DNA of 63,341 nt, counting the filler. It is 8 parts of 8 records of this genome, joined end to end, with 100 filler letters (N's around TTAATTAATTAA, not from the genome) between each part and the next. Parts side by side here need not be neighbours in the genome. Positions count along the whole stretch, not along the records: positions 23,446 to 27,166 come from SRR20825010_872; 7 more parts are not named here. The stretch is one strand, 5' to 3'. Both the position numbers and the translations under genes were made by a program. Every line of letters starts with the position of its first letter. The first letter of the stretch is position 1. Under the pieces are notes generated by a model that saw only the letters and a program-made list of their open reading frames with translations, had not been told where the DNA came from and made no database searches. Positions 16,696 through 34,695 of this stretch are shown here, in pieces.

Positions 16696-19131
16696 ATGAA
16701 AGTATTAAAATTTGGTGGCACATCAGTCGGATCGGAAGAAGCGATCAGACAAGTAGCCAAAATTGTCATTGGTAAAGCACAAACTGATAAGGTTATTGTC
16801 GTGGTGTCTGCCGTTGGGGGAATCACGGATAAACTGCTTAAAATAGGGGAATTGGCCGAGAACGGAAACCCTGCTTATCAGGACGCCATTCAGGAATTGC
16901 GATCACTGCACGAAACACTCTATAAATCACTCACCAAAGATTCCAAAAGCGAGCAAATCGCCGGCATCATAAGCGAATTGGAAGAAATCTGTCGTGGGGT
17001 TTTTCTTCTTAAGGAACTTACCCCAAGAAGCAGCGACTATATCGTCAGCACAGGCGAGCGACTTTCATCATTTATAATAGCAGCTTTTATCAGCCAAAGC
17101 TTTGCTGATACGGCACTGTTTGATTCCCGTGAAGTTCTCAAAACGGACAAACAGTTTGGCAATGCCAATGTGGACTTTGAAGTTTCCGGAAAACTTGTTT
17201 CAGCACTAAAATTCAAGCAAGTAAATATTTTCCCAGGCTTTATAGCTTCCACACCCGATAATGAAACCATAACGCTTGGTCGTGGAGGGTCAGATTATAC
17301 AGCCGCCATTTTAGCCAAATTGATCAATTCGAGTGATCTGGAAATATGGACCGACGTTGATGGTATCATGACTGCCGATCCACGATTGGTGAAACAAGCG
17401 CATTTCATCGAACATATATCTTACGAAGAGGCACTTGAACTTTCGCATTTTGGCGCAAAGGTGATTTACCCACCAAGTATCCAACCTGCTTTGGAAATCG
17501 GTATACCCATCATCATCAAAAACACATTCAACCCGGAACATCAGGGAACAGAAATCACCAAAGAATGGGACGAGGACAAACAACTCATACGTGGAATCAC
17601 GAGCATAAAAGACATCAGCCTGATCAATCTCTCAGGTGGTGGTATGGTTGGAATTCCCAGTTTCTCCTTTCGCTTATTTAAAGCGCTTTCAGAAAATAAA
17701 ATCAACATCATCCTGATCACTCAGGCGTCATCCGAGCACACCATCACCGTGGGAATTGCCACAAAAGATGCGAAAACGGCTGTAGCATGCCTGAACGCGG
17801 AATTTAAAGCAGAAATTAAGAGCAACTCTATCAACCCAATTGAAGCGGAAGACGACCTATCCATTATAGCGTTGGTTGGTGCCAACATGCGAAATCAGGT
17901 TGGTGTAAGCGGACAAATGTTTAATGTGCTCGGTAGAAATGGGGTTAGCATCAAGGCCATCGCACAAGGTTCATCCGAAAGGAACATATCTGCGGTAATT
18001 ACCCGTGAGGATTTGGACAAGGCACTAAACGTGCTTCACGAGAGCTTCTTCCTGTCCAACATGAAACGTATCAATCTGTTCATCATAGGAACAGGAAATG
18101 TTGGAAAGGCATTCATCAAGCAGCTCACCGGCCAGTTTGCCTATTTAAAAAAGCAACACAACCTCAATATCAAAATCATTGGATTGGCCAACTCCAGAAA
18201 AATGGCTTTCATGAAAGACGGCATTCCACTTTCCAAATGGGAGGAAAAGATGAGTGAGTCAACTGAAAAATTTGACCGTAAGTCGTTTTTCGAATACATG
18301 GAAAACTACAACCTTCGTAATTCCATTTTTGTCGATATCACAGGATCGCCGGAAATAGCAGGTATGTATCCTGATATCCTGAAAGAAAGTGTATCGGTGG
18401 TTACTCCAAACAAGATCGCTGCAACAGGGAGGTTTGAAGATTACCTGGCCTTAAAAGACACCTCCAAGCGATTTGGAAGTCACTTTTTGTTTGAAACCAA
18501 TGTTTGCGCTGGCCTTCCGGTACTTTCTACTTTATCAGATTTAATCAAATCTGGTGATCAGATTCATTCAGTAGAGGCGGTACTTTCGGGCACCCTCAAT
18601 TTCCTTTTCAACGAATACAATGGAAAAGAGAAGTTTGTAGACATAATAAAAAAGGCAAAAGAAATGGGCTACACCGAACCCGATCCTCGTTTGGATCTTT
18701 TCTGTGAGGATGTGAAAAGAAAAATACTTATTCTAATCCGGGAAAGCGGTTATGTGCATGAATTGGATGAAATTTCGCTGGAATCATTCCTGCCACAGAG
18801 CTGCGTGGACAGTACGTCCATTGAAGATTTTTATGCGAAAGTAGAAAAGGAAGAAGCTCACTTTAAAGCCATCTATGAAAAATCAAAGGCGAACAAAGCT
18901 CAATTGAGGGTCGTGGCAAGCTACAAAAACGGAGCAGCCTCAGTTGGCTTAAAAGAAATTTCATCGGAACATCCATTCTTCTATCTCGAAGGAAGCGACA
19001 ACATCGTCCTTTTCTTCACCAATCGCTACAAAGCTCAGCCTTTGGTGATCAAAGGGGCTGGTGCAGGAGCTGATGTTACAGCCTCAGGAATATTTGCAGA
19101 TGTATTACGAATTGCCCAATCGAACTATTGA
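16696..19131 (+). CDS. thrA: Bifunctional aspartokinase / homoserine dehydrogenase I
   Basis: KVLKFGGTS, LGRGGSDY, two ACT domains, GTGNVG, YTEPDPR, GAGADVTA. Confidence 0.97.
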   Translation: MKVLKFGGTSVGSEEAIRQVAKIVIGKAQTDKVIVVVSAVGGITDKLLKIGELAENGNPAYQDAIQELRSLHETLYKSLTKDSKSEQIAGIISELEEICRGVFLLKELTPRSSDYIVSTGERLSSFIIAAFISQSFADTALFDSREVLKTDKQFGNANVDFEVSGKLVSALKFKQVNIFPGFIASTPDNETITLGRGGSDYTAAILAKLINSSDLEIWTDVDGIMTADPRLVKQAHFIEHISYEEALELSHFGAKVIYPPSIQPALEIGIPIIIKNTFNPEHQGTEITKEWDEDKQLIRGITSIKDISLINLSGGGMVGIPSFSFRLFKALSENKINIILITQASSEHTITVGIATKDAKTAVACLNAEFKAEIKSNSINPIEAEDDLSIIALVGANMRNQVGVSGQMFNVLGRNGVSIKAIAQGSSERNISAVITREDLDKALNVLHESFFLSNMKRINLFIIGTGNVGKAFIKQLTGQFAYLKKQHNLNIKIIGLANSRKMAFMKDGIPLSKWEEKMSESTEKFDRKSFFEYMENYNLRNSIFVDITGSPEIAGMYPDILKESVSVVTPNKIAATGRFEDYLALKDTSKRFGSHFLFETNVCAGLPVLSTLSDLIKSGDQIHSVEAVLSGTLNFLFNEYNGKEKFVDIIKKAKEMGYTEPDPRLDLFCEDVKRKILILIRESGYVHELDEISLESFLPQSCVDSTSIEDFYAKVEKEEAHFKAIYEKSKANKAQLRVVASYKNGAASVGLKEISSEHPFFYLEGSDNIVLFFTNRYKAQPLVIKGAGAGADVTASGIFADVLRIAQSNY

Positions 19132-19134
19132 TTT

Positions 19135-20064
19135 ATGAATGAAGTAAAAGTTTTTGCTCCCGCTTCAGTAGCGAATGTTGGCTGTGGTTACGATACCATT
19201 GGTTTCGCCATAGACGGACTTGGAGACGAAATCACCATGTCCAAAAGAAGTGATTCTGCGCTTGTAATTAAAGACATCATTGGTGCTGACCTTCCTATGG
19301 AACCGGAAGAGAACGTGGCATCCATCGCTGTAAAGGCGTTGCTGGATCACCTTGGTTCAAAGCAAGGGTTTGATATTACTATCAAGAAGCTTTTTAAACC
19401 GGGTAGTGGCTTGGGATCCAGTGCATCAAGTGCTGCCGGAGCTGTATTTGCAGCTAATATCCTTTTGGGCGAGCCAATTGAAGAGAAGCAGGACTTGCTT
19501 CAGTTTGCCCTGGAGGGAGAGGCTTTTGCATCGAAGTGCTATCATGCGGACAATGTTGCCCCTTCTTTGATGGGTGGCTTCAACGTGATCAGAAGCTACG
19601 AGCCCGTTTTGGATATCTTTCAAGTAAATGTTCCGTCAGACCTTTGGGTACTGATCGTTTTCCCCGATGTGGTTATCAAAACCGCCGAATCTAAGAAACT
19701 GATACCTACTACACTAAGTATAAAAGATGCCAGAGATCAATGGTCGAATGTAGCAGGTTTAATACAAGCCTTTAATACGCATGATTTTGTATTGTTGAAA
19801 AAATCAGTGACCGATTTGATCGCAGAGCCAGTTCGGAAAGGATTTATACCAGGTTACGATCAGGTAAAAGAACTAGTTTTTGAAAGTGGCAGTGTTGGAT
19901 TCAATATTTCAGGGTCAGGCCCAAGCATGTTTGCCTTTTTTAAGAATGAAAAAGAAATGAACAAGGCAAAGCCTGGAATTCGAAAACTTTACGAAGAAAA
20001 AAACTTACCAGTAATTCTTCATTCATCTAAAATCAACCTTCATGGTTGTGAGATTATAGGGTAA
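19135..20064 (+). CDS. thrB: Homoserine kinase
   Basis: APASVANVGCGYD, PGSGLGSSASSA GHMP motif, HADNVAP, ISGSGPS. Confidence 0.96.
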   Translation: MNEVKVFAPASVANVGCGYDTIGFAIDGLGDEITMSKRSDSALVIKDIIGADLPMEPEENVASIAVKALLDHLGSKQGFDITIKKLFKPGSGLGSSASSAAGAVFAANILLGEPIEEKQDLLQFALEGEAFASKCYHADNVAPSLMGGFNVIRSYEPVLDIFQVNVPSDLWVLIVFPDVVIKTAESKKLIPTTLSIKDARDQWSNVAGLIQAFNTHDFVLLKKSVTDLIAEPVRKGFIPGYDQVKELVFESGSVGFNISGSGPSMFAFFKNEKEMNKAKPGIRKLYEEKNLPVILHSSKINLHGCEIIG

Positions 20065-20091
20065 CAGGGGCTATCAATTCATAACGGAAAC

Positions 20092-21378
20092 ATGAAATTT
20101 TACAGTACAAAGGGAAAAAGTGAAGTAGTGTCTTTCAGAGAAGGTGTCATCAAAGGACTCCCAGATGATAACGGTCTCTTTTTTCCCGAGTTCATTCCTA
20201 AATTGAATCTTGATTTTCTTAAGTCCTTAAAAAACCACACCCTTCCTGAAATCGGAACAGAAGTCATGCGGCATTTCACTCATGAGGACATTCAGGGAGC
20301 TAAGCTGGAGCAAATCATGGGCGAGGTTCTCGATTTTGAGATCCCCGTAAAAAAAATAACCAGCAATATCTCCAGTCTGGAGCTGTTTCATGGTCCTACT
20401 TATGCATTCAAAGACGTTGGGGCTCGTTTTCTTGCGAGATGCCTGGGGTATTTCAATGAATCAGATAATAAGGAGATAACCATTCTTGTAGCCACTTCTG
20501 GAGATACAGGTGGAGCTGTGGCAGCAGGTTTTTATAAAGTTCCCGGTGTTAAAGTAGTCATCCTTTATCCATCTGGAAAAGTAAGTGAACTGCAGGAAAA
20601 GCAATTAACCACCCTTGGTGAGAATATAACCGCATTGGAAATTGATGGCGATTTTGATGATTGTCAGGCCTTGGTGAAAACCGCTTTTCTAGATAAGGAG
20701 ATCAACGCGAAATTATCCTTATCCTCTGCCAATTCGATAAACATTGCACGTTGGCTGCCTCAGTCCATCTATTATTACGAGGCGCTAAAACAGCTTGAGT
20801 CTGATAATCCAGTCGTTATTTCAGTTCCAAGTGGAAACTACGGAAATATCACAGCAGGAATGCTGGCTAAAAAAATGGGTCTACCCATACATCGATTCAT
20901 TGCAGCATCAAATGCAAATGACATTGTGCCAAGGTATATAAAGAACGGTGTTTACGAGATTCAACCGACAGTTGCCACTCTCAGCAACGCCATGGACGTC
21001 AGTAACCCGAGTAATTTCCCTCGAATGATGGAATTGTACAATAAAGACTGGGACGCGGTTAAAAAAGACGTTATTGGCTTTTCTCTTGATGACGCCCACA
21101 CATTAAAAACAATGGCCAATTGCGAGAAAACAACCAAATACATATTGGATCCACATGGAGCGGTTGGTTTTGAAGCGCTCACCCAGATTTTGGATAAAAA
21201 CGAGCAAGGCATTTTCCTTGAAACGGCGCATCCATGCAAATTTATTGACACAGTTGAAAAGGCACTTAACCAAAAAATAAGTCTCCCAACCTTTGTGGAA
21301 GGATTGATGAAAAAAGAGAAAACCTCCTCAAGATTGAATAAGGACTTTCAAGGATTTAAGGCCTATCTGCTAAGCTAA
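20092..21378 (+). CDS. thrC: Threonine synthase
   Basis: LELFHGPTYAFKD, ATSGDTG, SANSINIAR, VPSGNYGN. Confidence 0.97.
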   Translation: MKFYSTKGKSEVVSFREGVIKGLPDDNGLFFPEFIPKLNLDFLKSLKNHTLPEIGTEVMRHFTHEDIQGAKLEQIMGEVLDFEIPVKKITSNISSLELFHGPTYAFKDVGARFLARCLGYFNESDNKEITILVATSGDTGGAVAAGFYKVPGVKVVILYPSGKVSELQEKQLTTLGENITALEIDGDFDDCQALVKTAFLDKEINAKLSLSSANSINIARWLPQSIYYYEALKQLESDNPVVISVPSGNYGNITAGMLAKKMGLPIHRFIAASNANDIVPRYIKNGVYEIQPTVATLSNAMDVSNPSNFPRMMELYNKDWDAVKKDVIGFSLDDAHTLKTMANCEKTTKYILDPHGAVGFEALTQILDKNEQGIFLETAHPCKFIDTVEKALNQKISLPTFVEGLMKKEKTSSRLNKDFQGFKAYLLS

Positions 21379-21606
21379 CAAAACCACCTACCCCTCGTTT
21401 ATTCCATTTTATCTGTAACTTTTGGCTAAGTTTGAAATTCAGCCAGCGTTTTCAGATCAAAATTTCCTCATTTCTCAGGGCAAAAAACACCTAATTATAG
21501 TCTTTTTGAAAAAAAAAGCTGAAGCAAAAACTTTAAGCACAATACTATATTGCCCTTACTTTCAATTAGTTATGAATCTTAACTAACTGGTTACCAGATA
21601 TTTATC

Positions 21607-21636
21607 TTGTTTTTGTGAATTTTTTATTTAACTTTA
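21607..21636 (+). promoter_or_regulatory. Bacteroidota housekeeping promoter (-33/-7) for the small peptide gene
   Basis: TTG-N19-TAACTTTA against consensus TTG-N19-21-TAnnTTTG. Confidence 0.6.
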
Positions 21637-21676
21637 CACCCGTAATCATTTAATAAAGAATCAAACAACCAGTACT

Positions 21677-21853
21677 ATGAAAAAGATTTTAACTGTATTA
21701 AGTATCGCATTTTGCATCGCTGTAATCGCTCCTTCATGTGCCTCTTCTGACGAAAGCTTTGAAGAAATCGTTTTGAACTCCAATCTTGATCAAACAGCAC
21801 CATCAAATGGAGATGGCAGCACAGATCCAGTACCTGGTCCTGGAGGAGATTGA
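21677..21853 (+). CDS. 58-aa lipoprotein/peptide precursor (below the ORF-track cutoff)
   Basis: Hand translation MKKILTVLSIAFCIAVIAPSCASSDESFEEIVLNSNLDQTAPSNGDGSTDPVPGPGGD; signal peptide with lipobox-like APS-C21; own promoter and terminator. Confidence 0.85.
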   Translation: MKKILTVLSIAFCIAVIAPSCASSDESFEEIVLNSNLDQTAPSNGDGSTDPVPGPGGD

Positions 21854-21874
21854 TAAATACTTGAAAGAAAATAG

Positions 21875-21907
21875 AGGCAGGCAAATCATTTGTCTGCCTT
21901 TTTTTTT
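21875..21907 (+). terminator. Rho-independent terminator after the peptide gene
   Basis: AGGCAGGCAAA-TCA-TTTGTCTGCCT followed by a T run. Confidence 0.85.
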
Positions 21908-21937
21908 AGATTTACGGTTAACGTCAACCAAGCGGCT

Positions 21938-23197
21938 ATGCGATTACCTATGTTTATAGGTTTTTTTGTTTTCATTTTTGCAGCATCAAGTGCTGTAAAA
22001 GACGATATTACCCAAATGCATGAGCAAGCGTACAAGCTTCTAAAGACGAATCCTGAAGAAGCAATGATTTTGGCTCTGCAGTCAGAAGAAATATCAAGAA
22101 AGGAAGGCTTACCATACGAGGAATCCAACTCGCTCTTTATTCAGGCTTGGATTTACAAAATGAACGGCGAACCTGGCAAATCCTTTGTGCTGTATTTGAA
22201 AGCACTTCAAGCCATTAAAGAGGATATTCTAATTGAAAAATCAGCCAAACTTTATACAAATCTCCTTATTGGAACTGGGTCTATTCTGAAAGAACATTAT
22301 GCTTATTCAGAGTCTTTGAGCTATTATGACGAGGGAATTTCAGTTGCTCTAAAATATAAATGGGATTCTAAAATTCAAATATTATATCAAGCCAGGGCAG
22401 GTGTATACCAGGAAATGAGTGCCTTAACAGACGCCCTATTAGATGTTCAAACCTCATTTGAATACGCCAAAAAGCTCAAGGATGTCAATGCAATAGTTAG
22501 TGTGCTCAACAACAAAGGCTTGATTGAAGTTGATTTAAAAATGTATGATCAGGCTCTGGTGACCTACCGGGAAATCCTGGAGTTAGATTTGCCTGAGACT
22601 ATTCGAAATGAATACCATGGAAAAGCCTGGCACAACATAGGACACACTTATATGCAAACAGGAAGAGCGACGGAGGCTCTGGAAGCATTTTTGCGTGCGG
22701 CTGAAGTGAAATCTCGATATCCGGATGATGCAAACCAGTTTATTACCTGGACGGACATTGCCGAGAACTACCTCAACCAGGGCAACTTGAAACTGGCAAG
22801 GGAGTATGGTGAAAAAGCAGTTCAAGCGTATGATAGTATGCCTTTGTCTCCTGATAATTACAGACTGTTTGATCTCATGTCAAACATTGCATTCAAACAA
22901 GGTGAGTATAAACTGTCGCGAAGCTATGTCGAACAATACATGGCCGAGAATAAAGAATTTTTGAACCTTCAAGAAGATCTTATCCGCGTAAAAGATCAGT
23001 ATAAAATGGAAATACTTGCCGCCGGCTTTTTTCTGGAAGTCAATTCAGCTAAGAACACCGACTGGTACACCATGTGGCTGACTATCGTAGGATCGGTGTT
23101 CTCGCTGCTCCTCTTGGTTGGTATTGGTGGACAATATTATGTCCGTCGATCAATCAGAGCCTCCATTCGGAAAATACAGGAAGACAGCTTTATTTAA
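21938..23197 (+). CDS. Exported TPR protein with C-terminal TM anchor and ~20-aa tail
   Basis: N-terminal signal peptide; TPR-like segments (LNNKGLI, WHNIGHTY); TM WLTIVGSVFSLLLLVGIG. Confidence 0.85.
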   Translation: MRLPMFIGFFVFIFAASSAVKDDITQMHEQAYKLLKTNPEEAMILALQSEEISRKEGLPYEESNSLFIQAWIYKMNGEPGKSFVLYLKALQAIKEDILIEKSAKLYTNLLIGTGSILKEHYAYSESLSYYDEGISVALKYKWDSKIQILYQARAGVYQEMSALTDALLDVQTSFEYAKKLKDVNAIVSVLNNKGLIEVDLKMYDQALVTYREILELDLPETIRNEYHGKAWHNIGHTYMQTGRATEALEAFLRAAEVKSRYPDDANQFITWTDIAENYLNQGNLKLAREYGEKAVQAYDSMPLSPDNYRLFDLMSNIAFKQGEYKLSRSYVEQYMAENKEFLNLQEDLIRVKDQYKMEILAAGFFLEVNSAKNTDWYTMWLTIVGSVFSLLLLVGIGGQYYVRRSIRASIRKIQEDSFI

Positions 23198-23216
23198 GCT
23201 TCTCCTATTATCACTT

Positions 23217-23345
23217 CTAAATCCATTTCACTTTTTCTTCCATACTTGTTCTTGGTGGAATCGCTGTAGTCGGCTGGTAGTAACCCATATAAAAAAAACC
23301 AATACAAGATTCGTTCGAATCCAAAGGCGTAAACTCACCAAAATA
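23217..23345 (-). CDS. Nitroreductase family protein, C-terminal fragment
   Basis: Hand translation ...LDSNESCIGFFYMGY...PRTSMEEKVKWI*. Confidence 0.65.
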   Translation of the reverse strand, partial: YFGEFTPLDSNESCIGFFYMGYYQPTTAIPPRTSMEEKVKWI

Positions 23346-23445
23346 NNNNNNNNNNNNNNNNNNNNNNNNNNNNNNNNNNNNNNNNNNNNTTAATTAATTA
23401 ANNNNNNNNNNNNNNNNNNNNNNNNNNNNNNNNNNNNNNNNNNNN
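23346..23445. other. Artificial contig spacer
   Basis: N-TTAATTAATTAA-N. Confidence 0.99.
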
Positions 23446-24163: not shown

Positions 24164-24529
24164 ATGACCCCCTTTGGCCTTCGCGTGCGGACCCTTCGCA
24201 AAAGCCGGGGGATTACGCTTAAAAAAATGGCCGGCGATCTGGATATCAGCTCGGCCTATCTCTCCGCGCTGGAGCATGGCCATCGCGGCCGCCCGTCCTG
24301 GTCCCTCGTCGCGCAGATCTGCGATTATTTCAATATTATCTGGGACGACGCGGAGGAGTTGCAGCGCCTCGCCTCCCTCTCCCACCCGAAGGTGGCGGTG
24401 GATACCAGCGGGCTTAGCCCGACAGCCACGGAATATGCCAACTTGCTGGCCAAGGAAATCCGCGCCCTGCCGGAGGCGCGTCTGAAAGAAATGCTCCGCT
24501 ATCTTAAAAGCAACAGGTCAGAAAAATGA
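24164..24529 (+). CDS. XRE-family HTH transcriptional regulator
   Basis: MTPFG..LR...ISSAYLSALEHGHRGRP. Confidence 0.9.
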   Translation: MTPFGLRVRTLRKSRGITLKKMAGDLDISSAYLSALEHGHRGRPSWSLVAQICDYFNIIWDDAEELQRLASLSHPKVAVDTSGLSPTATEYANLLAKEIRALPEARLKEMLRYLKSNRSEK

Positions 24530-24980
24530 GCGCCGCCCGCTCCGATAAGGGCGTCAAACTCGCGCGCGGGGTGCAGAAACTCCTCCATGACATGGGCTAT
24601 GACAGCCTGATGGAGGTAAACTTGCGCATTCGCCGCCGCGTCGATGTGATGGGCATTAATGAAAAAGGGCGGATTATCATTGTCGAGGTGAAATCCGGCC
24701 CCGCCGACTTCCGCGTGGATGAGAAATGGAGCGACTATCTCGATTTTTGCGATGAGTTCTATTTCGCCGTTGATGCGGACTTCCCGCGTGATCTCCTGCC
24801 CGAAACCCATGGCCTGATCATTGCGGATGGTTTTGGCGGTGCAATCGCCCGCGCCTCCAGCGATTTTAACCTCAACGCCGCGCGGCGGCGCAATGTCACA
24901 CTCCGGTTCGCGCGGATCGCTGCCCGCGGCGGCTCCTTGAAACTGAAAACCCCCTGCAGGAGAAGTATCATGTGCTCTAA
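24526..24980 (+). CDS. mmcB: MmcB-family DNA repair endonuclease, apparently frameshifted near 24925 and reading into the cupin gene
   Basis: RRVDVMG..IIIVEVKS..DFRVDEKW..YLDFCD..YFAV PD-(D/E)xK pattern; an RRLL...stop ending lies in another frame (TAA 24978-24980). Confidence 0.75.
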
Positions 24981-25305
24981 CACCCCCGAAGGAACCGCCC
25001 TCCCCAGTGTCTTTATCGACAACCCCCGCACTCGCGTCACCGAATGGCGTTTTGAAAAGCGCGGCGACGCCACCGGATGGCATACGCACCAGTATGATTA
25101 CGTCGTCGTGCCGCTGTTCGACGGTTTTCTCGAAATCGAGCTGCCGGGCGGAGAAATCACCCGCGCCGAGCTTAAAACCGGCGTCCCCTATTTCCGGGAG
25201 ACCGGCGTCGAGCATAATGTCAAGAACGGCAACGACTTCGAATGCGCCTTTATCGAGGTGGAGTTTTTAACGGTGGACCGAAAGGGTTTTAGGACCAACA
25301 CCTAG
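24970..25305 (+). CDS. Cupin domain protein (BauB-like)
   Basis: Own AGGAG RBS; TGWHTHQYDYVVVP and GVEHNV cupin motifs. Confidence 0.8.
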   Translation: MCSNTPEGTALPSVFIDNPRTRVTEWRFEKRGDATGWHTHQYDYVVVPLFDGFLEIELPGGEITRAELKTGVPYFRETGVEHNVKNGNDFECAFIEVEFLTVDRKGFRTNT

Positions 25306-25484
25306 GTCGAAACAATAGAATCCTGAGTTGAATTCAAACGAAAGATTCGTTCGTAAAAAAACACATCGAACCTGTTTTGTTGCTTTCGTGCAACCCGGCA
25401 TCGGCACCTCGTTAACCATATTGCCGGTTTTCTTGTCACGAAACCACCGTATTTCGCGCATCTCGCATATAAGTAAAATTTTAG

Positions 25485-25500
25485 CCACAGGATGTAGTAT
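25485..25500. promoter_or_regulatory. NrdR-box-like site 1
   Basis: CCACAGGATGTAGTAT against consensus acaCwAtATaTwGtgt. Confidence 0.45.
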
Positions 25501-25508
25501 TTTTGCTG

Positions 25509-25537
25509 TTGACTTGATTGGACCTGCTCGACATGAT
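25509..25537 (+). promoter_or_regulatory. Sigma70 promoter
   Basis: TTGACT-N17-CATGAT. Confidence 0.65.
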
Positions 25538-25560
25538 CCTATGCTACTAGGGGAATTTGC

Positions 25561-25576
25561 CTACTATATGTAGTGC
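25561..25576. promoter_or_regulatory. NrdR-box-like site 2
   Basis: CTACTATATGTAGTGC; core CwAtATrTwG intact. Confidence 0.55.
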
Positions 25577-25984
25577 TTTTTATTCTGAAATGGTCGTATT
25601 TGGCCGAATTTCGGCATGAGAATTTATTAATTACAGAGAAATATGAGAGGGTTATTATAAGGAATTCTCGGTGCAAATTTGAGTACCGCTGCAACGGGTA
25701 ATAAAAAGGGCCACACAAAACCTTACTTGCGATAAGGCAACTGTGTGACCCGTGGTACGGTGAGAAAGCCTCGCCTCACTTAGTGTTCAGCAAGAGATTT
25801 CTACGACTCCGAAACGAAAGAATCTCACATTAATGCGCTCACTTCAAGAGGTAGTTTTATCTATGGAGGCGCTGTTGAAAGCAATATTTTGTTTTCCAGT
25901 GCGCGCATATATTCGACTTCGCTATGGCAAAATCGAATTTGTGAGAGCGCATACTAGATGCAGGTATTGATTCTGCTTGACTTT

Positions 25985-26010
25985 GAGAGAGGGCTTTCGG
26001 GCCCTCTTTC
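25985..26010 (+). terminator. UUCG-loop terminal hairpin / terminator
   Basis: GAGAGAGGGCT-TTCG-GGCCCTCTTTC with two G-U pairs valid on the + strand. Confidence 0.7.
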
Positions 26011-26020
26011 ATACCGCGCT

Positions 26021-27019
26021 TCACCGATACGGATCGTCTTTTGCGAGGTAGTTGGTGACGTAGTCGCTGATGCCGTCCTCTAAACTTCGGAAATTACCGC
26101 CGAAGCCGGCGGTGCGGAGTTTTTGCATATTGGCTTCGGTGAAATACTGGTATTTGTCGCGGATTTGCTCCGGGGTGTCCACGTAATTGATCTTTTCCGG
26201 CTTGTTCGCGGCGGTGAACAGGGCGCTCGCGAGATCCTTGAAGCTGCGCGCCTTGCCGGTGCCGAGGTTGAAGAGGCCGGACACCTTGGGGTTATCGAGC
26301 AGCCAGAGCATCACATCGACGCAATCCTTCACATAGACGAAATCACGGAGCTGTCCGCCGTCCTCATACTCCGGGTTGTGGGACTTGAAGAGGGTGACGG
26401 CCTCGCCCGCCGCGACTTTCGGGTAACTCTGGGCGATCACGCTCTTCATATTGCCCTTGTGATATTCATTCGGGCCGTAAACGTTGAAAAACTTGAGCCC
26501 CGCCCATTGCGGCGGCGTCATGGCGCCCCGGGTGATCTCGCGCGCGACGAACTTGTCGAAGGCATGCTTGCTCCAGCCGTAAAGATTGAGCGGTTGCAGC
26601 TTCTCAAGCGCCGCCTCGCTCTGGTCATCGTCAAACCCCGCCGCCCCGTCGCCATAGGTTGCGGCGGAGGAGGCATAGATAAACGGTATCTTGTTATCGG
26701 TCGCGAAGCGCCAGAGCATTTTTGTCGGGCGGAAGTTACGTTTCAGGATCAAATCGCCGTCCGTCTCGGTGGTGGCGGAGATCGCGCCCATATGGATGAT
26801 TGCCCGCAGGCGGCTGTCATTCCTGTGCAGCCAGCTTTCGAGATCATCGGGGTCGATAAAGTCGGAAATCGTTGATTTTGCGATATTTTTCCATTTTTCG
26901 CCCTGTTCCAGCCAGTCGCAGACGATGATCTTCTCGCCGCGTTCCGAGAGTGCCGCGACAATATTGGAGCCGATAAAGCCCGCGCCGCCGGTCACCAGGA
27001 TCAGATTTCCCAATTTCAC
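26021..27019 (-). CDS. hldD: ADP-L-glycero-D-manno-heptose 6-epimerase
   Basis: [47 protein letters not shown] start overlapping the upstream stop. Confidence 0.95.
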
Positions 27020-27166: not shown

Positions 27167-27266
27167 NNNNNNNNNNNNNNNNNNNNNNNNNNNNNNNNNN
27201 NNNNNNNNNNTTAATTAATTAANNNNNNNNNNNNNNNNNNNNNNNNNNNNNNNNNNNNNNNNNNNN
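27167..27266. other. Artificial contig spacer
   Basis: N-TTAATTAATTAA-N. Confidence 0.99.
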
Positions 27267-27385
27267 AACTTCTCCACCCTTGTCTTAACAAGCTTTGCTG
27301 GGATAAAGTGTCCAAGCTCGTGAAGTACGATCAAGAGCGATAAACTTAGAAAGAATTGTATGGTCTTTATAACTATAGGGGTCAT
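27267..27385 (-). CDS. rseP: RIP metalloprotease RseP, N-terminal fragment
   Basis: LSLSLLIVLHELGHF (HExGH). Confidence 0.85.
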
Positions 27386-27536
27386 CCGTCGTCTTTTGTT
27401 AAAACGCACAAAAGTAACCTTTTAGGGATTGATAAAAAAACCTCAAATTTTATCCTTTCATGATTTAAGAAAGATTTAGCAACAATAAGTCTCTTTCTCC
27501 TTGAAGAATAGCCAATTGGGGCGTAATTTTGCAACT

Positions 27537-28211
27537 ATGGGATCATTCTTCGCGAAGTACAAAATGTTCGGAATTGTAATGCTGGTACTCTCCGGCGTCA
27601 TCGTCTATCTATTTTACAATGCGTTGCAACCAAAAAAAATGCTCCCTGTCTATCAGCCTTCAATGGTGGATAAATCACTAGTGGACAGCACCTTGCACTA
27701 TACCAAAAAATACCACAAAGTGGCAGATTTTTCTCTGGTGAACCAAAATGGGGAAACTATCACACAGGAAGATTACAAGGACAAAATCTACGTAGCGGAT
27801 TTCTTTTTCACTACCTGTCTCACCATTTGCCCAATAATGACCAAGAATATGGGCGAAGTCCAAGAAGCCATCAAAAACGACCCTAACATCATGCTTCTCT
27901 CCCACTCCGTTACACCACAAATCGATACCGTTGCCCAATTAAAACGGTACGCCTTGGAAAAAGGGGTGATCGATAGCAAATGGAACTTGGTGACCGGTGA
28001 TAAAAAACAGATTTATGAACTTGCCAGAAAATCCTATTTAGCCGTTAAAAATGATGGGGACGGAGGGCCGTTCGATATGATCCATACCGAAAATTTTATT
28101 TTGGTGGACAAGGAAAAACGGATTCGAGGCTTTTATGATGGCACAGATCGGGAAGAAATAGATCGTCTACTTAGCGACATTAAAATACTTGAAGCCAGCT
28201 ACAAAGAATAG
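27537..28211 (+). CDS. SCO1/SenC family copper chaperone
   Basis: FFFTTCLTICP (CxxxC) and HTENFILVD; TAATTTTG -7 box just upstream. Confidence 0.93.
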   Translation: MGSFFAKYKMFGIVMLVLSGVIVYLFYNALQPKKMLPVYQPSMVDKSLVDSTLHYTKKYHKVADFSLVNQNGETITQEDYKDKIYVADFFFTTCLTICPIMTKNMGEVQEAIKNDPNIMLLSHSVTPQIDTVAQLKRYALEKGVIDSKWNLVTGDKKQIYELARKSYLAVKNDGDGGPFDMIHTENFILVDKEKRIRGFYDGTDREEIDRLLSDIKILEASYKE

Positions 28212-28261
28212 TTTCCCATACCTTTCTGCATGAATAGACCTCCTATTTATCCTTTTTTACT

Positions 28262-28296
28262 TATTTTTGGCCTTACTTAAATTTATTCTAAATAAG
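28262..28296 (+). promoter_or_regulatory. -7 promoter box followed by Fur-like inverted repeat upstream of feoAB
   Basis: TATTTTTG then imperfect palindrome CTTACTTAAATTTATTCTAAATAAG. Confidence 0.6.
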
Positions 28297-28300
28297 AACA

Positions 28301-28543
28301 GTGGTGACCGTTGCAGATTTACAATATGGGCAAAAGGGGATAATCAAAGATTTCACCGAACATATACTTCCTATAAAGTTGTTGGAATTGGGGTGCTTAC
28401 CCGGAAACAGTGTGGAGCTTTTGCAAATTGCACCCTTGAACGACCCCATCTATATCAACCTCAGCGGAAGCCATTTGGCAATCAGAAGGTCCTTGGCTGC
28501 GCTTATTGAGCTGGAAATTATTGAAGAAACGCAGGCCAAATGA
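28301..28543 (+). CDS. feoA: Ferrous iron transport protein A
   Basis: KLLELGCLPG..APLNDPIYI..LAIRRS; upstream of feoB. Confidence 0.93.
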   Translation: MVTVADLQYGQKGIIKDFTEHILPIKLLELGCLPGNSVELLQIAPLNDPIYINLSGSHLAIRRSLAALIELEIIEETQAK

Positions 28544-30756
28544 GCAAGAACATCAATGTAGCCTTGATCGGCAACCCTAATACAGGAAAAACCTCAGTTT
28601 TCAATCAACTTACCGGACTCAAGCAAAAAGTAGGGAACTATCCCGGCATAACGGTTGAGAAAAAAGAAGGAATCTGTAAACTTCCAAGGGGCGTAAAGGC
28701 CCATATCCTGGATCTTCCCGGAACCTATAGCCTTAACACTACTTCGTTGGATGAAAGTCTGGTCGTAGAGCTTTTGCTCAATAAAAACGACAAGGACTAT
28801 CCCGATGTTGCCGTAGTAATCAGCGATGTGGAAAACCTAAAAAGGAACCTACTGCTTTTCACCCAGATAAAAGACCTAAAGATTCCAACCATTCTGGTCA
28901 TCAATATGGCGGATCGTATGGACCGTAAGGGCATTTCGTTGGATGTGGAGACCATGGAAAAAAAGCTGGACACCAAGATTGCCCTCGTGAGTACCAGAAA
29001 AAATACCGGAATCGATAGAATTAAGGAGCTCATTGCCGACTATAAGAGCATCTCCTCAAAACCTATCTTGGATACCTCCAGAATTTCCCCGGAATATTTT
29101 GAGCGTCTAAAAAGCACCTTTCCACAAGAAGATCTCTACAAATTGTGGTTGGTGATCACGCAGGATGTCAACTTTATGCCCATCGAGAAAAAACGCATTC
29201 AGGATGCGACCGATTTCTCCACCAAGTCCAAGGACGAACTCAAAAAATTACAGCATAAGGAGACTGTACTCAGATACCAACTCATCAACAATATTTTAAG
29301 GGAAACCTACAAGGTCGATTTTATGGCCGCCAAAGGTCTTCGGGCATCATTGGATAAGATTTTGACCCACAAAGTCTTTGGTTACCTTATTTTCTTTGCC
29401 ATCCTATTGCTTATTTTCCAAGCCATTTTTGAGTGGAGCTCCTACCCCATGGATTTTATTGATGAAAACTTTGCCTTGGCTGCGGAATGGATCAAAAACA
29501 CCTTACCTCCCGGGGTTTTCACCGATTTACTTGCGGAAGGGATAGTGGCCGGTATTGGCGGAATCGTCATTTTTATTCCCCAAATCGCCTTCCTGTTCCT
29601 CTTTATTTCATTGCTGGAAGAATCCGGATATATGAGCCGTGTAGTATTCTTGATGGATAGGCTGATGCGTCCCTTTGGATTGAGCGGGAAGAGCGTCGTC
29701 CCATTGATTTCAGGAAATGCCTGTGCCATTCCGGCCATTATGGCGACACGGACGATAGAAAACTGGAAGGAACGTCTTATTACCATTTTGGTGACACCTT
29801 TTACCACATGCTCTGCCAGGCTGCCTGTTTATTTAATTTTGATAGCGCTTGTAATTCCGGAAGGAAGCTTTTTAGGGTTAAGTTTCCAAGCGTTGACTTT
29901 GATGCTCCTATATCTCATTGGGTTTGGAATGGCTCTTTTATCTGCTATGGTCCTAAATAAGATCCTTAAAATAAAGAGTAGGGCCATTTTTATGATCGAG
30001 ATGCCAACCTATCGCTTGCCCTTGTTAAAAAATGTTGGCTATACCGTGATTGAAAAGACCAAGAGCTTTGTGCTCGGTGCAGGTAAGATTATTTTGGCTA
30101 TATCAATTGTATTATGGTTTTTGGGCTCCAACGGTTATTCTGATGATTTCCAGAATGCCGAAAGTATTGTAGCCGAACGTATCGAGAACGTAGGATTGAG
30201 CACCTACAGCAAAAATTATGTCCAGAACAATATAGATGCCTATCGCACCAACGCAGAAGCCGAAGGTATGGCCGCTGGTGCAATACAGGATTCCATCCAA
30301 ATACTCAGGGAAGAACTTTCCGAAAGAGCCGTTGCACAGGAAATTGCCAGCTACAAATTAGAGCACTCGTACATTGGTCAAGCAGGAAAAGCCTTTGAAC
30401 CACTTGTAAAACCCTTGGGCTACGACTGGAAAATCGGAATAGCCGTTTTGACCTCCTTTGCTGCACGCGAAGTGTTCGTAGGGACCTTGGCTACCATTTA
30501 TAGTGTGGGAAGCGATGAAGAAGAAACCATACAGAACCGAATGGCCGCGGAACTGGATGAAGATGGCGAACCACTGTTCAATTTGGCTTCCGGCATCTCG
30601 TTGATGTTGTTCTATGCCTTTGCCATGCAATGTATGAGCACACTCGCCATTGTAAAAAGAGAGACGAATTCTTGGAAATGGCCCATGATCCAATTGGGCT
30701 TTATGAGCGTTTTTGCGTATATTATGGCGTTGATGGCCTATCAAATATTAAGTTAA
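28540..30756 (+). CDS. feoB: Ferrous iron transport protein B
   Basis: GNPNTGKT, VGNYPGITVE, DLPGTYSL, NMAD, TCSARLPVY, multi-TM C-terminus. Confidence 0.97.
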   Translation: MSKNINVALIGNPNTGKTSVFNQLTGLKQKVGNYPGITVEKKEGICKLPRGVKAHILDLPGTYSLNTTSLDESLVVELLLNKNDKDYPDVAVVISDVENLKRNLLLFTQIKDLKIPTILVINMADRMDRKGISLDVETMEKKLDTKIALVSTRKNTGIDRIKELIADYKSISSKPILDTSRISPEYFERLKSTFPQEDLYKLWLVITQDVNFMPIEKKRIQDATDFSTKSKDELKKLQHKETVLRYQLINNILRETYKVDFMAAKGLRASLDKILTHKVFGYLIFFAILLLIFQAIFEWSSYPMDFIDENFALAAEWIKNTLPPGVFTDLLAEGIVAGIGGIVIFIPQIAFLFLFISLLEESGYMSRVVFLMDRLMRPFGLSGKSVVPLISGNACAIPAIMATRTIENWKERLITILVTPFTTCSARLPVYLILIALVIPEGSFLGLSFQALTLMLLYLIGFGMALLSAMVLNKILKIKSRAIFMIEMPTYRLPLLKNVGYTVIEKTKSFVLGAGKIILAISIVLWFLGSNGYSDDFQNAESIVAERIENVGLSTYSKNYVQNNIDAYRTNAEAEGMAAGAIQDSIQILREELSERAVAQEIASYKLEHSYIGQAGKAFEPLVKPLGYDWKIGIAVLTSFAAREVFVGTLATIYSVGSDEEETIQNRMAAELDEDGEPLFNLASGISLMLFYAFAMQCMSTLAIVKRETNSWKWPMIQLGFMSVFAYIMALMAYQILS

Positions 30757-30763
30757 CCCAATC

Positions 30764-30907
30764 ATGGTTCAACAAATTTTAGCATACGGAACATTGATTA
30801 TTGCAGCAGGTTATTTAGTGTGGAAATTCTTGCTTCCCAAATCACTCTTCGGTAAAGGGAGTAAAGATTCCAATTCCTGCGGAAGCGATAACTGCGGTTG
30901 CAGTTAA
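30764..30907 (+). CDS. FeoB-associated Cys-rich membrane protein (47 aa, not in ORF track)
   Basis: Hand translation MVQQILAYGTLIIAAGYLVWKFLLPKSLFGKGSKDSNSCGSDNCGCS. Confidence 0.85.
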   Translation: MVQQILAYGTLIIAAGYLVWKFLLPKSLFGKGSKDSNSCGSDNCGCS

Positions 30908-30924
30908 CTCCTTTTTAATGCAGT

Positions 30925-30950
30925 TGTCAGGTCGTGCGCAGTCGAGACCT
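30925..30950 (+). repeat. Flavobacterial REP-like element
   Basis: TGTCAGGTCGTGCGCAGTCGAGACCT; second copy at 36262. Confidence 0.6.
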
Positions 30951-31183
30951 TTAGAATAGTAAATGATGATTGAATCATCGACTAAATATTATTACACTGA
31001 ATATCATTATTTCACTACTTTAGTCCATAGGATATTCCCGCTAAGAACACGGAAAGAAATAAACAACTTTTGAACACAAATCTTGTTTGTTTAAACTTCG
31101 ATAAGAATAGTAATAATCTACAAAGTAGTCTGTTCTCTATTTAAAATTATTCCTCAATTCATAGATCTGTTCATAGTCAAGCC

Positions 31184-31627
31184 CTATTCCAAAACTATGG
31201 TTGATGATTGCCTTGCCGCCAAAAGCCAACCCCTATCGCTGGATATCCAAATATTCGTGAATCTCCTTGGTATCCATTGATTTTCATCTGTGGTCATACT
31301 TGGTGGTTGCTGCAACTCCTTTCCCATAACCACGGCAACATTGGCATTAAAGGTTTTTCTCTCGATGATTCGTTTTACCTTGGGAAATTTATGCCCATTT
31401 TCCATTAGTGCAACTATCTCTTTGGGAGTCACTATTTTTCCTTTGGTATTGTTCACAACATAATCAGGAGACCAAATATCCAACAATGCGGCAGTATCCC
31501 CATCGTCCAGCAATTTCGTCCATTTTTTTTCCAATTTTCGAATTTCCATTTCATCCTTCGACTGCCCGTAGGTAAGGCATACCGTCAATAGCAACAGTGC
31601 AAGGGAACTTATCTTTTTCATTGTCAT
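31184..31627 (-). CDS. Secreted NTF2-like (DUF4440) protein
   Basis: Signal peptide; RFTNIW...WLLAARQ NTF2-type C-terminus. Confidence 0.8.
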   Translation of the reverse strand: MTMKKISSLALLLLTVCLTYGQSKDEMEIRKLEKKWTKLLDDGDTAALLDIWSPDYVVNNTKGKIVTPKEIVALMENGHKFPKVKRIIERKTFNANVAVVMGKELQQPPSMTTDENQWIPRRFTNIWISSDRGWLLAARQSSTIVLE

Positions 31628-31680
31628 AAGGTTAAATCCATATTTTGCGTACGTAATTCCAATTATCCATAAAAGATAAA

Positions 31681-32550
31681 TTATTTCCTGAAAGAATCTG
31701 ATATAAAGGTCATAAAGTCGGGCAATATCCCACGCCAATATGTCCAGTCATGGGCACCATTCTGTATTCTGAACTCATGCTCCACACCCTTGGCCTTCAG
31801 CACTGTGTGCAACATCACATTGTTGGGCGACAAATGATCATCATCACCACAGCTTATGTACCATTTTATGTTTTGTTCCGCATCCTTAGGTTGGTTTTCA
31901 AAAAATGATATTACATCATAAGGTTTGTACCAATCCATCAATATCTTTTCACTGACATTCGGATACTTTCCTTTCAGGTATTGGGAATCATATTTTCTTA
32001 CTGCTCCGCTCAATGCGCAGGCCACCGAGAATTCTTCCGGTTGGTGAACGGCATATTGGATCACGGCCGCACCCCCCAAAGAAGCCCCGGCAATGGCCTT
32101 GCTATCCCTATCTTTACGGCATCGATAGTTTTGTTCGATATGTGGAATGAATTCTTTGAAAAAGAAATCCTCAAAATCAAAATCGCCTTCGGGATCATTA
32201 AAATAACTGATTCTCTTTGCTCCATAGTTGGCGTCCGGTGTCACCACTATCATGGGAACTATATCTCCATTTGCGATGGCATTGTCCAAATAATGCTTCA
32301 ATTCCCCATAATAGAGCCAAGACCTATGATCTGGAACCGTGTTTCGAGGTCCCGCTGGATGCAATAGATAAAGAACCGGATAGGTCATATCGGAAGTATC
32401 ATAACCCTGTGGCAAATAAATGGAATAGTGTCGCTCTTTCTTTAGAATGGAGCTTTCAAGCGTCTTAGCTTCGAATACCTTTCCTTGATTTTGGGCATTT
32501 ACTGACAATGTATTCCATAAAATGACCCCTAGAACAATAAAGTATCTCAT
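31681..32550 (-). CDS. Secreted esterase (alpha/beta hydrolase)
   Basis: YPVLYLLH, GASLGG nucleophile elbow, CGDDD, GAHDWTYW. Confidence 0.9.
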   Translation of the reverse strand: MRYFIVLGVILWNTLSVNAQNQGKVFEAKTLESSILKKERHYSIYLPQGYDTSDMTYPVLYLLHPAGPRNTVPDHRSWLYYGELKHYLDNAIANGDIVPMIVVTPDANYGAKRISYFNDPEGDFDFEDFFFKEFIPHIEQNYRCRKDRDSKAIAGASLGGAAVIQYAVHQPEEFSVACALSGAVRKYDSQYLKGKYPNVSEKILMDWYKPYDVISFFENQPKDAEQNIKWYISCGDDDHLSPNNVMLHTVLKAKGVEHEFRIQNGAHDWTYWRGILPDFMTFISDSFRK

Positions 32551-32634
32551 ATTAGTTGGTATAAGTTAATTGTTTGTTTAAAGATAAGAGTGTGTAGTTT
32601 AAATTAATTAATCCAGATCAGCATCCAGATACAT

Positions 32635-33024
32635 TCAATCTGCAATCCTATTGTTCTTGTCAAAAGACATAAAGAAATTGATCCAAATGTTCCTTGAAAT
32701 CCTTAAAATCAAGGGTAGTGCCAAAATCATTACTACCACAATTGCACAATAGGTCGTAATTAAGCTTAAATCAAAAATGAGAAATCCCAACACAAATGTT
32801 GCAATGGCAAAAACAAGGCCCACAGGATAGCTTACATACATAGCACCGTAAAAAAAGGAAGGTTCTATCTTATACTTCGTTTTACAGTGGCTGCATCTTT
32901 CTTTCATTTTCAATGTACTGTGCAATTTATAAGGATTTGGTTCCTCATACATACTTTCATTTTGACAAACAGGACATTTACCAGTAAAAACACTATAGAC
33001 CTTTGTACCTTCAAAAATTTCCAT
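32635..33024 (-). CDS. DUF983 family membrane protein
   Basis: CPVC...CSHC..EPSFFYGAMYVSY plus two TM helices. Confidence 0.85.
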   Translation of the reverse strand: MEIFEGTKVYSVFTGKCPVCQNESMYEEPNPYKLHSTLKMKERCSHCKTKYKIEPSFFYGAMYVSYPVGLVFAIATFVLGFLIFDLSLITTYCAIVVVMILALPLILRISRNIWINFFMSFDKNNRIAD

Positions 33025-33133
33025 GATCAATTTTTAAAAACGCTAACCTTTTTAATTTAAATGACAAAGGTAAAAACGAAACCAATTTTAGTCTTATACA
33101 ATACTCTCCATTATTTGTACATTTAGGACATTT

Positions 33134-34030
33134 ATGTACAATAAACCCATGATTCCAATTTTAAACATATCGGAGTTTGAAAAAAAGATAAGCACAAATG
33201 AGGTGTACAGCAATGAACTGGGAAAGCACCTGATGAACAACAGTGACATAGTCCACACGGCTCATAAACATGATTTTTTCTTATGCGTCCTTTTTACCAA
33301 GGGAAGAGGTACGCATGAAATTGATTTCAACAATTATGACCTTGGCCCAGGGAGTGTGTTTTTCTTAAAACCAGGCCAAACCCATTTATGGAAATTTGAC
33401 AGCGAGCCTGATGGTTTCATATTTTTTCATACCAGGGATTTCTTTGAAATTGGCTTTTCGGATACCAAACTTGAACAATTCCCTTTCTACTTTTCTAATG
33501 AAAACCCACCAAACCTTCACATAAATTTGGATAATCTTGAACAAATCAAGACACGGTTTGCCGAATTGAATTCCGAATACCATAAAAACCTACCCTTTAA
33601 AGAACAAAAGTTACAGGGCTTAATAAGACTAATCTATATTGACCTGTCCCGATTATATTCCTCATATGAATCGCACAAAATTATAGCTTCAACAACCTAT
33701 CTCAACACTCTAAGGAACTTGGAAACCTTGATTCAAAAAAATTATAGCAAGGAAAAAAGGGTACGGTATTACGCGGAAAAACTAAACATCACTACAAAGC
33801 ATTTGAACAGAGTTACCATGGAATCCATTGGCAAGTCACCCTCAGAACTAATCCAAGAACGTTTATTATTGGAAGCCAAGCGACTCTTGGTACATTCAGA
33901 AAATTCCTTGGTAAACATCTCTGACTTTCTGGGATTTAAGGATTATGCCCATTTCTCTAAAGTTTTTAAAGTTAAAACAGGGGCCACACCAACAGATTTT
34001 AGAAAGAAATACAAAAGTTCAGTTTCATGA
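33134..34030 (+). CDS. AraC family transcriptional regulator
   Basis: HKHDFF cupin N-terminus; LGFKDYAHFSKVFK..TG.TP..FR. Confidence 0.93.
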   Translation: MYNKPMIPILNISEFEKKISTNEVYSNELGKHLMNNSDIVHTAHKHDFFLCVLFTKGRGTHEIDFNNYDLGPGSVFFLKPGQTHLWKFDSEPDGFIFFHTRDFFEIGFSDTKLEQFPFYFSNENPPNLHINLDNLEQIKTRFAELNSEYHKNLPFKEQKLQGLIRLIYIDLSRLYSSYESHKIIASTTYLNTLRNLETLIQKNYSKEKRVRYYAEKLNITTKHLNRVTMESIGKSPSELIQERLLLEAKRLLVHSENSLVNISDFLGFKDYAHFSKVFKVKTGATPTDFRKKYKSSVS

Positions 34031-34111
34031 CCTCGCGACTACGTTCTCACATCCTATTTCCAACAACTTATTTTCACAAATCACAATTTTTTAATTTTTT
34101 CCCTCCCTTTT

Positions 34112-34140
34112 TGTAACCTTTCTTAATTTCCTGACTATAT
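34112..34140 (+). promoter_or_regulatory. Candidate ECF-type autoregulatory promoter
   Basis: TGTAACC -35-like element and GACT -10-like element just upstream of the ECF sigma gene. Confidence 0.4.
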
Positions 34141-34693: not shown

Positions 34694-34695
34694 CC

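Follow-up and report, generated by a model that had tools for sequence, protein, structure and literature searches.

We examined a gap between two genes at nucleotides 25306-26020 of the window (the whole stretch of DNA analysed, 63,341 nucleotides long), which, as the initial annotation had pointed out, is visibly richer in AT than the flanking genes (GC 0.39-0.46, against 0.56-0.61 in the flanks). On its left, a single open frame on the + strand (24526-25305) joins an MmcB-like part to a weak cupin part, as judged from Pfam and from synteny with the related loci L001-L004: residues 3-134 match the Pfam MmcB-like family with E 1.7e-43, and the last 125 residues match Cupin_2 with E 8e-4, at 19.5 bits and thus under the cut-off of 27.2. 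On its right lies a convergent gene for an hldD-type NAD-dependent epimerase (26021-27019, - strand; Pfam Epimerase, E 3.9e-40), whose product shares 87-88% amino acid identity with those of Sneathiella MAGs. The host of the gap is a Sneathiella-like alphaproteobacterium. The gap begins, past the cupin stop codon, with an AT-rich spacer (25306-25377) that showed no homology to the gaps of relatives or to nrdJ upstream regions. Further out in the window, two blocks of ~40% GC (14000-23400 and 27170-41600) lie around this core segment of ~58% GC. They encode a fused aspartokinase-homoserine dehydrogenase with thrB and thrC, FeoB, SCO1, an ECF sigma/anti-sigma pair, a DUF4369-redoxin and a sortilin-like protein; no synteny with relatives was found for either block, and they may be islands of foreign origin or the product of a mosaic assembly.

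The order of MmcB/cupin gene, gap and convergent hldD is kept in four relatives (L001-L004), and the content of the gap is unrelated from one of them to the next. It consists of AbiD in L001 (2531-3547; PADLOC, E 1.4e-65), a 509-amino acid dCTP-deaminase-type defence protein in L002 (5192-6718; E 2.7e-153), a DUF433/MerR and DUF5615/PIN-like pair in L003 (5028-6070), and DUF1330 with a WYL fragment in L004 (4998-5996); L005 and L007 have almost no insert. Since the content differs between relatives and every insert is low in GC, we regard the cupin-hldD gap as a hypervariable slot, often with defence or toxin-antitoxin cargo. Among marine alphaproteobacteria, it illustrates clearly how a defence islet can lie between core genes. 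An integron cassette, a retron, a type III toxin-antitoxin system and a transposon-derived repeat were each considered for the window's gap and dropped, as there was no sign of an integrase, a reverse transcriptase, tandem repeats or additional copies.

Directly after the spacer, the + strand carries a paralogous copy of the promoter/operator region of nrdJ, the gene of the class II, B12-dependent ribonucleotide reductase (25378-25576; DNA alignment to relatives). The block aligns at 73.1% over 193 nt with L081, L084 and L085, at 79.1% over 139 nt with L082 and at 75.7% over 140 nt with L083, and in every one of these loci its homologue sits directly upstream of nrdJ. A DNA search of five relatives' genomes gave a single match, in G003, at another locus and again upstream of nrdJ; a scan of metagenome contigs with a promoter 20-mer gave five loci, four of which are true gap matches. 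The fifth, L086, was discarded as a chance 21-mer match, which leaves five nrdJ loci out of six found. Within the block lies the sigma70 promoter that the initial annotation had proposed, TTGACT-N17-CATGAT (25509-25537, + strand). Promoter-like sites as such are no commoner than in shuffled sequence (2 found, 1.3 +/- 1.1 expected); when four sequences, nrdJ promoters included, are aligned, none departs from the -35 hexamer, and three of the four share the -10 hexamer, which has one change in L083. Judged by this alignment, the promoter is real and homologous to the conserved nrdJ promoter of the relatives; it would be active, and would serve the small gene described below. The homology to nrdJ loci ends at ~25575: the next 120 nt aligned with nrdJ leaders no better than shuffles did (305, 158 and 345 of 500 reached the observed score). 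Pairing of the gap RNA with the relatives' nrdJ leaders was likewise no better than with shuffles (28, 9 and 66 of 100), and the 3' flanks of nrdJ gave no match to the gap. A decayed nrdJ remnant in the gap was sought and rejected (best tblastn E 0.09 in a 715-nt database).

Two further elements were seen in the promoter copy. TTAACCAT at 25412-25419, which we take to resemble a CtrA half-site, is kept in three of the four aligned sequences, and the arms of a palindrome, GTTGCTTTCGTGCAAC at 25379-25394, are kept in all four; the conservation of the two suggests, at the level of sequence, further regulators of nrdJ. At the other end of that gene, the first 120 nt past the nrdJ stop codon in L083 and L085 contain repeated short motifs of the GCGTAAC/CAGTAG type.

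According to PMC13584703, the NrdR box spans 16 bp with six key positions (C4, A6, A8, T9, T11 and G13), and NrdR needs two boxes separated by a linker of 15-16 or 26-27 bp. Comparison with these six positions places three NrdR-like boxes in the promoter copy: box 0 (25453-25468), which is decayed and retains four key positions, C4 being lost; box 1 (25485-25500), which retains five, with G at position 6, and is also supported by the alignment; and box 2 (25561-25576), which retains all six. The starts of boxes 0 and 1 lie 32 bp apart, and box 2 follows 76 bp after box 1, the same distance as in relatives. The nrdJ promoters of the relatives also have three boxes, a tandem pair complete in all six positions, 31 bp apart and upstream of the -35 element, and a third 76 bp further on. 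Matches to a complete box occur across the window at the rate expected by chance (15 found, 15.5 expected), so that box 2 derives its weight from its homology to the nrdJ promoter. The gene for NrdR (nrdR) is present in two of the three closest MAGs. We infer from these sequence features that the boxes of 25378-25576 would place the unit under NrdR control.

Similar boxes were noticed at other loci. In the Rhodospirillales-type loci L011, L014, L017-L019, L021, L026, L031, L051, L056, L063, L064, L066, L073 and L076, which had been fetched via hldD, tandem NrdR-like boxes occur mostly at about 3300-3480, and the pair lies mostly ~550-700 nt upstream of hldD, with other offsets in L011 and L031; in L017 it stands between two small divergent ORFs of 166 and 103 amino acids. 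By its sequence, the Rhodospirillales-type pair near hldD may be an unrecognised NrdR target. In the slot cargo of L004, two complete boxes 32 bp apart (5505-5552) lie between the WYL-like ORF and DUF1330; this pair has no sequence similarity to nrdJ promoters.

The initial annotation had read the region from the promoter to the end of the gap as a stand-alone, multi-branch structured RNA of ~465 nt and of unknown class. Its observations of pairing are accurate: the 11 stems it listed are all in place, with 68 Watson-Crick, 6 G-U and 1 A-C pairs on the + strand, so that the non-Watson-Crick pairs are indeed mostly G-U, and the UUCG-capped hairpin belongs to the minimum-energy fold. One of the stems, an 8-bp long-range pair, is present, but at about the level that chance would give in 467 nt (roughly 1.7 expected, by estimate). 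The comparison with dinucleotide shuffles that had been proposed as a check came out in favour of folding for the whole 467 nt, though this was so for either strand (z -4.07 for +, -4.87 for -), and folding therefore gives no strand. The presumed 5' leader by itself (25544-25874, + strand; the start of transcription is placed by inference) gave z -1.73 on the + strand, where 5 of 100 shuffles folded as well, and -2.44 on the - strand.

Strand-mixed z-scores in 70-nt windows place the signal in separate parts of the gap. The stretch 25700-25769 favours the - strand (-5.2, against -1.7 on +), 25840-25909 favours the + strand (-3.5, against -0.7), and 25900-25969 again the - strand (-3.6, against -1.4). 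The + signal at 25840-25909 consists of two hairpins that bury a ribosome-binding site and flank the start codon of the gene described below. On the - strand there is a canonical intrinsic terminator at 25703-25751, with a hairpin at 25708-25751 (dG -25.2 kcal/mol) followed by TTTTT at 25707-25703; it is the sole hairpin-plus-T-run site on that strand of the gap, and it faces hldD. On the + strand, no hairpin-plus-T-run terminator was found between the promoter and the ORF. The GC-rich 11-bp hairpin with the UUCG loop (25985-26010) lies 14 nt past the stop codon of the micro-gene and 10 nt past that of hldD, and no T-run follows it on either strand; in a metagenomic variant, G25987 is changed to A, which turns a G-U into an A-U pair. 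A + strand unit that ends near this hairpin is plausible.

Nor did the region resemble any RNA family searched. Rfam 15 (4227 families) gave no match at the gathering score anywhere in the window, in line with the initial annotation's failure to see a known family, and the single match within 25250-26080 is at chance level (E 2; 13 bits against 60). No copy of 25575-26020 was found in 39 Sneathiellaceae or 401 other sampled alphaproteobacterial genomes, plasmid and phage collections gave no blastn match to the gap, and there is no second copy within the window. Exact-pattern scans with three patterns in viral contigs and with one leader pattern in metagenome contigs gave no matches either. The sequence does not support a large RNA of a new class here: the 3' part contains a micro-protein gene, the leader folds no better than shuffles, the strongest hairpin of the leader is the - strand terminator, and neither a strand preference nor a wider homologue emerged. 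The earlier reading had drawn on the lack of any ORF of 60 amino acids or more in 25574-26020. That statement is correct (the longest frames, of 59 and 55 amino acids, are on the - strand), but it hid a gene of 31 codons. The case takes one supposed new kind of large RNA off the list, and it also shows that "no ORF of 60 amino acids or more" can conceal a real micro-gene.

This gene, of 31 codons plus stop (25875-25970, + strand), was recovered by a ribosome-site-led ORF scan and by a match to the phage protein family phrog_21154. It starts with TTG at 25875 and is open to TGA at 25968-25970; in-frame starts upstream, at ATG 25863 and ATG 25833, would give 35 and 45 amino acids, respectively. 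A Shine-Dalgarno sequence, GGAGG (25865-25869, + strand), precedes the TTG by 5 nt, an arrangement that resembles the AAGGAGG-TTG of the homologue at L100. In each of three sequence contexts, this GGAGG is predicted to be paired with a probability of 0.99 or more; the stem that opposes it lies at 25842-25846. The start codon is 338 nt from the -10 element.

When the 45-amino acid in-frame form (P0002) was searched with phmmer against 1.84 billion proteins, one significant match was returned, the 40-amino acid P0001 (E 3.2e-4), which is encoded on a contig of 21 kb and with which it shares 19 of 25 residues. Both match the phrog_21154 profile (P0002, E 3.7e-6; P0001, E 3.8e-5), against which the core member P0003, a Marinitoga virus protein, scores E 7.9e-28; residues 22-42 of the window protein align with positions 22-42 of the 47 in the profile. 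None of the eight other ORFs of the gap, taken as controls, matched PHROG at E 0.01 or better, and no Pfam match was found for them. In an alignment of 27 family members, V9, Y12, R14, E21 and H26 are invariant, and all five are present in the window protein, as are the near-invariant R16, G18, V23 and R28; position 7, usually V, is F. The protein ends in RCRY, without the S-x-P tail usual in the family. AlphaFold2, run on the 27-sequence alignment, predicted four beta strands in a beta-meander (mean pLDDT 93.4). The micro-protein has a basic character and a hydropathy index of 0.01, and its predicted fold is all-beta.

The family occurs in 6 of 401 sampled alphaproteobacterial genomes, where its members have 26-42 amino acids (n=6; one with a TTG start). 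In five of these six loci (L099-L103; none evident in L104), a strong GGAG-type ribosome-binding site precedes the start, and the homologues' sites lie 2-12 codons before the motif. Another 20 metagenomic members, all of 30-79 amino acids, are all named "hypothetical". Among phage records, one query recovered the family in 55 and another in 7; in many such records the family gene was left unannotated. Several searches with the micro-protein or its model were negative in their own scope: Foldseek against the PDB (nothing at E 0.001 or better), a PDB profile search (chance-level matches only, E 0.005 or worse), the ESM Atlas (scoring 0.84, as expected by chance), a word-index protein search with the 45-amino acid form, protein alignment against viral contigs, and profile searches of 39 Sneathiellaceae genomes, which gave noise only. 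Against BFVD, the best Foldseek rows were uncharacterised phage proteins of 37-44% identity, including the 40-amino acid H0092 of VT2-Sa; lower ranks held HU-like DNA-binding proteins at E 0.14 and weaker, to be taken as leads only. Thus, the phmmer and PHROG matches, the invariant residues, the ribosome-binding sites of the homologues and the mean pLDDT of 93.4 establish 25875-25970 as a real micro-gene.

As to what the protein does, a beta-meander of basic character and the weak rows for HU-like proteins in the structure search allow a guess, based on modelling, that it may bind nucleic acid. In VT2-Sakai (L109, 1141-1287) and Salmonella phage Oslo (L112, 1168-1293), the family gene is downstream of cI and before N, a stretch that is presumably the place where lambda carries rexAB. 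Taken together, the place of the gene between cI and N in lambdoid phages and the defence cargo that relatives carry in this slot suggest that its role is accessory or related to conflict. A type I toxin-antitoxin locus was rejected, the peptide being basic and predicted all-beta with a hydropathy index of 0.01, as opposed to a small hydrophobic membrane peptide; no promoter-like site for an antisense RNA was found on the - strand in 25750-26020.

Contigs from sequencing runs provided relatives of the locus. A metagenome contig of 482 nt is collinear with 25480-25971 at ~85% identity; because it shows the junction between the promoter and the AT-rich sequence in a second lineage, that junction is no assembly artefact. 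The same contig differs from the window by indels of 1 nt and 10 nt, which mark 25575-25860 as non-coding. The part 25601-25852 recurs at 95% identity in a contig of an RNA library, for which DNA carry-over is possible and which, as a contig, gives no strand; two DNA runs carry 25760/25771-25852 at ~99% identity. In these three runs, which come from three studies, the sequence diverges sharply at 25852, ~20 nt before the ribosome-binding site, and one of the three has a different sequence beside the hldD stop codon as well. The divergence at 25852 points to a variable cassette between 25852 and hldD, with the promoter copy and leader as the constant part in the species group. Among the differences listed for a metagenomic contig over 25935-26166, none falls in 25935-25971 (the last 12 codons) and 12 fall in 25972-26019. 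The shares of all five sequencing runs are small (0.04-0.07), and no conclusion on habitat or strain is drawn from them; that the RNA-library contigs leave 25308-25571 uncovered was given no weight as evidence.

We also looked at NrdR-like boxes near family genes elsewhere. In Marinitoga camini virus 2, two complete boxes 32 bp apart lie ~50 nt before the start of the phrog_21154 gene, and the second abuts a TATAAT. Two Lacticaseibacillus phages have a pair, with six and five of the six key positions, 33 bp apart and ~65-115 nt upstream of the family gene. No box pair was found upstream of the family gene in the six alphaproteobacterial loci, in four others (VT2-Sakai, Salmonella phage Oslo, a Ralstonia phage and Azospirillum phage Cd) or in a Helicobacter prophage, and a faecal phage contig has a pair only ~500 nt upstream. 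The background rate can be gauged from the fetched loci, whose 770 kb contain 36 box pairs, many of which belong to true nrdJ promoters. On this sequence evidence, the link between NrdR boxes and phrog_21154 appears to be recurrent, not general. That two phage lineages, unrelated to each other, have such boxes ahead of this family offers a lead to its function and a possible member of the NrdR regulon other than a reductase; our literature search found no description of an NrdR-controlled small RNA or micro-protein. A tentative extension, which we put forward as a doubtful but specific idea, is that the NrdR (deoxynucleotide-sensing) regulon has an accessory arm, so far unrecognised, made up of phrog_21154 micro-proteins. 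The same beta-meander protein of 30-45 amino acids would have been placed under operators of the NrdR type on at least three independent occasions (through an operator of its own in Marinitoga, through the Lacticaseibacillus boxes, and through capture of the host nrdJ promoter), and it would have nucleotide supply, NrdR or the reductase as its target, or would take part in phage-host conflict from within a defence slot.

We consider it somewhat better than an even bet that the gap is a small + strand expression cassette, in which the nrdJ promoter copy leads through a long leader to the phrog_21154 micro-gene. The copy, with its -35, -10 and three boxes, would start a transcript near 25544, which would pass through a leader of ~330 nt into the 31-codon gene and end near 25985-26010. 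With the ribosome-binding site locked in a predicted hairpin, translation would probably be restrained, and, provided that NrdR can still bind the boxes, a shortage of deoxynucleotides would turn the unit on along with ribonucleotide reductase. The other strand of the leader would provide the only canonical terminator for the convergent hldD transcript. In this scheme, transcription and the strand used, the start and end of the transcript, control by NrdR and the action of the protein are put together from the arrangement of the elements. Several features speak against it: the 338 nt between the -10 element and the start codon are long when set beside the ~50 nt in the Marinitoga virus, the tandem pair is decayed (four and five of six positions), so that only the distant box 2 is intact, most lineages checked have no NrdR-like boxes ahead of the family gene, and the window protein ends without the S-x-P tail. 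What is new is the arrangement; its parts, a promoter of the NrdR type and a family of phage micro-genes, are of known kinds. A housekeeping promoter with a nucleotide-sensing operator, copied into a hypervariable slot before a phage-type micro-protein, would be a modest and testable novelty.

The same elements could have gathered by neutral turnover of cargo. The micro-gene, the terminator on the - strand and the copied promoter would then be fragments hitch-hiking at a hotspot of recombination, neither expressed in concert nor serving a function. The unrelated low-GC content of the slot in every close relative is what such turnover would leave, and so are the three metagenomic variants that share 25601/25760-25852 and diverge at 25852, the decay of boxes 0 and 1, the hairpins that favour different strands, and the absence of 25575-26020 from all 39 family genomes and all 401 sampled genomes of the class. 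Yet the micro-ORF is intact, with all invariant residues and a strong ribosome-binding site, the promoter hexamers are identical to those of the relatives' functional nrdJ promoter, and the arrangement from promoter to 3' end is kept in a second lineage at ~85% identity; we therefore rate neutral assembly as unlikely, while giving it more room than the two readings that follow.

One of these is the structured RNA itself, a + strand transcript of ~465 nt with its function in the fold and the small ORF incidental. The z-score of the whole region (-4.07), the excess of G-U over A-C pairs in the listed stems (6 against 1), the indels of 1 and 10 nt that make 25575-25860 non-coding, and the presence of a relative's 25601-25852 in RNA-library contigs (with possible DNA carry-over) would all agree with it. 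The - strand, however, folds as well (z -4.87) and the leader alone reaches -1.73, Rfam gave only the chance-level match (E 2) in the gap and none at the gathering score, the best structured parts are the - strand terminator, the coding region and the end hairpin, and the 3' third belongs to a protein family; we hold this reading to be very improbable. We give equally little credence to a gap that is mainly a - strand feature, in which hldD would have a 3' untranslated region of ~315 nt reaching to the terminator at 25751-25703, and the + promoter would make an antisense RNA that modulates hldD. The sole canonical terminator downstream of hldD does lie at 25751-25703, the hairpin beside the hldD stop codon lacks a T-run, and the + promoter and hldD are convergent. 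On the other hand, 25750-26020 has neither a promoter nor a ribosome-site-led ORF on the - strand, and a conserved + strand micro-gene would be left unexplained. The 55-amino acid - strand frame was rejected as a gene, since in a relative it is broken by two 1-nt insertions and has lost its start; one of six substitutions in it falls at the third codon position.

Several known systems can be compared with the cassette. Large bacterial non-coding RNAs in Rfam include OLE, GOLLD, ROOL, HEARO and raiA. The gap is like them in extending over several hundred nt without a long ORF and with many hairpins; unlike them, it has no covariance-model match, no conserved homologues and no strand-specific folding, and it contains a coding segment. 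With defence and toxin-antitoxin islets between conserved core genes it shares the very slot, since AbiD (L001), the dCTP-deaminase-type protein (L002) and the DUF433/MerR and DUF5615/PIN-like pair (L003) occupy the same cupin-hldD position; the cargo of the window differs in having no Pfam defence match, the PADLOC scan having covered the cargo proteins of four relatives.

The NrdR-repressed reductase promoters (S. coelicolor nrdRJ and E. coli nrdAB, nrdHIEF and nrdDG), as described in PMC13584703 and PMC12051234, are similar in their partially palindromic 16-bp boxes with six conserved positions, placed around a sigma-70-type promoter, and to the nrdJ promoters of relatives the block of the gap is directly homologous. 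In contrast to these promoters, the copy in the gap drives no reductase gene and its tandem pair is decayed; its intact box is 76 bp from box 1, which leaves a linker of 60 bp, outside the 15-16 or 26-27 bp that PMC13584703 gives as shown to bind. The closest counterparts of the micro-gene itself are the phrog_21154 proteins of phages, such as the 42-amino acid proteins of Marinitoga camini virus 1 and 2, H0092 of VT2-Sakai and AMBK_50 of Oslo. The window gene shares with them the invariant V, Y, R, E and H motif, the size class of 26-50 amino acids, a strong ribosome-binding site and an accessory, "moron"-type position. It differs from them in its tail, which lacks S-x-P, and in its long leader, and, with no prophage around, it sits in a slot between core genes of the chromosome behind a promoter borrowed from the host.
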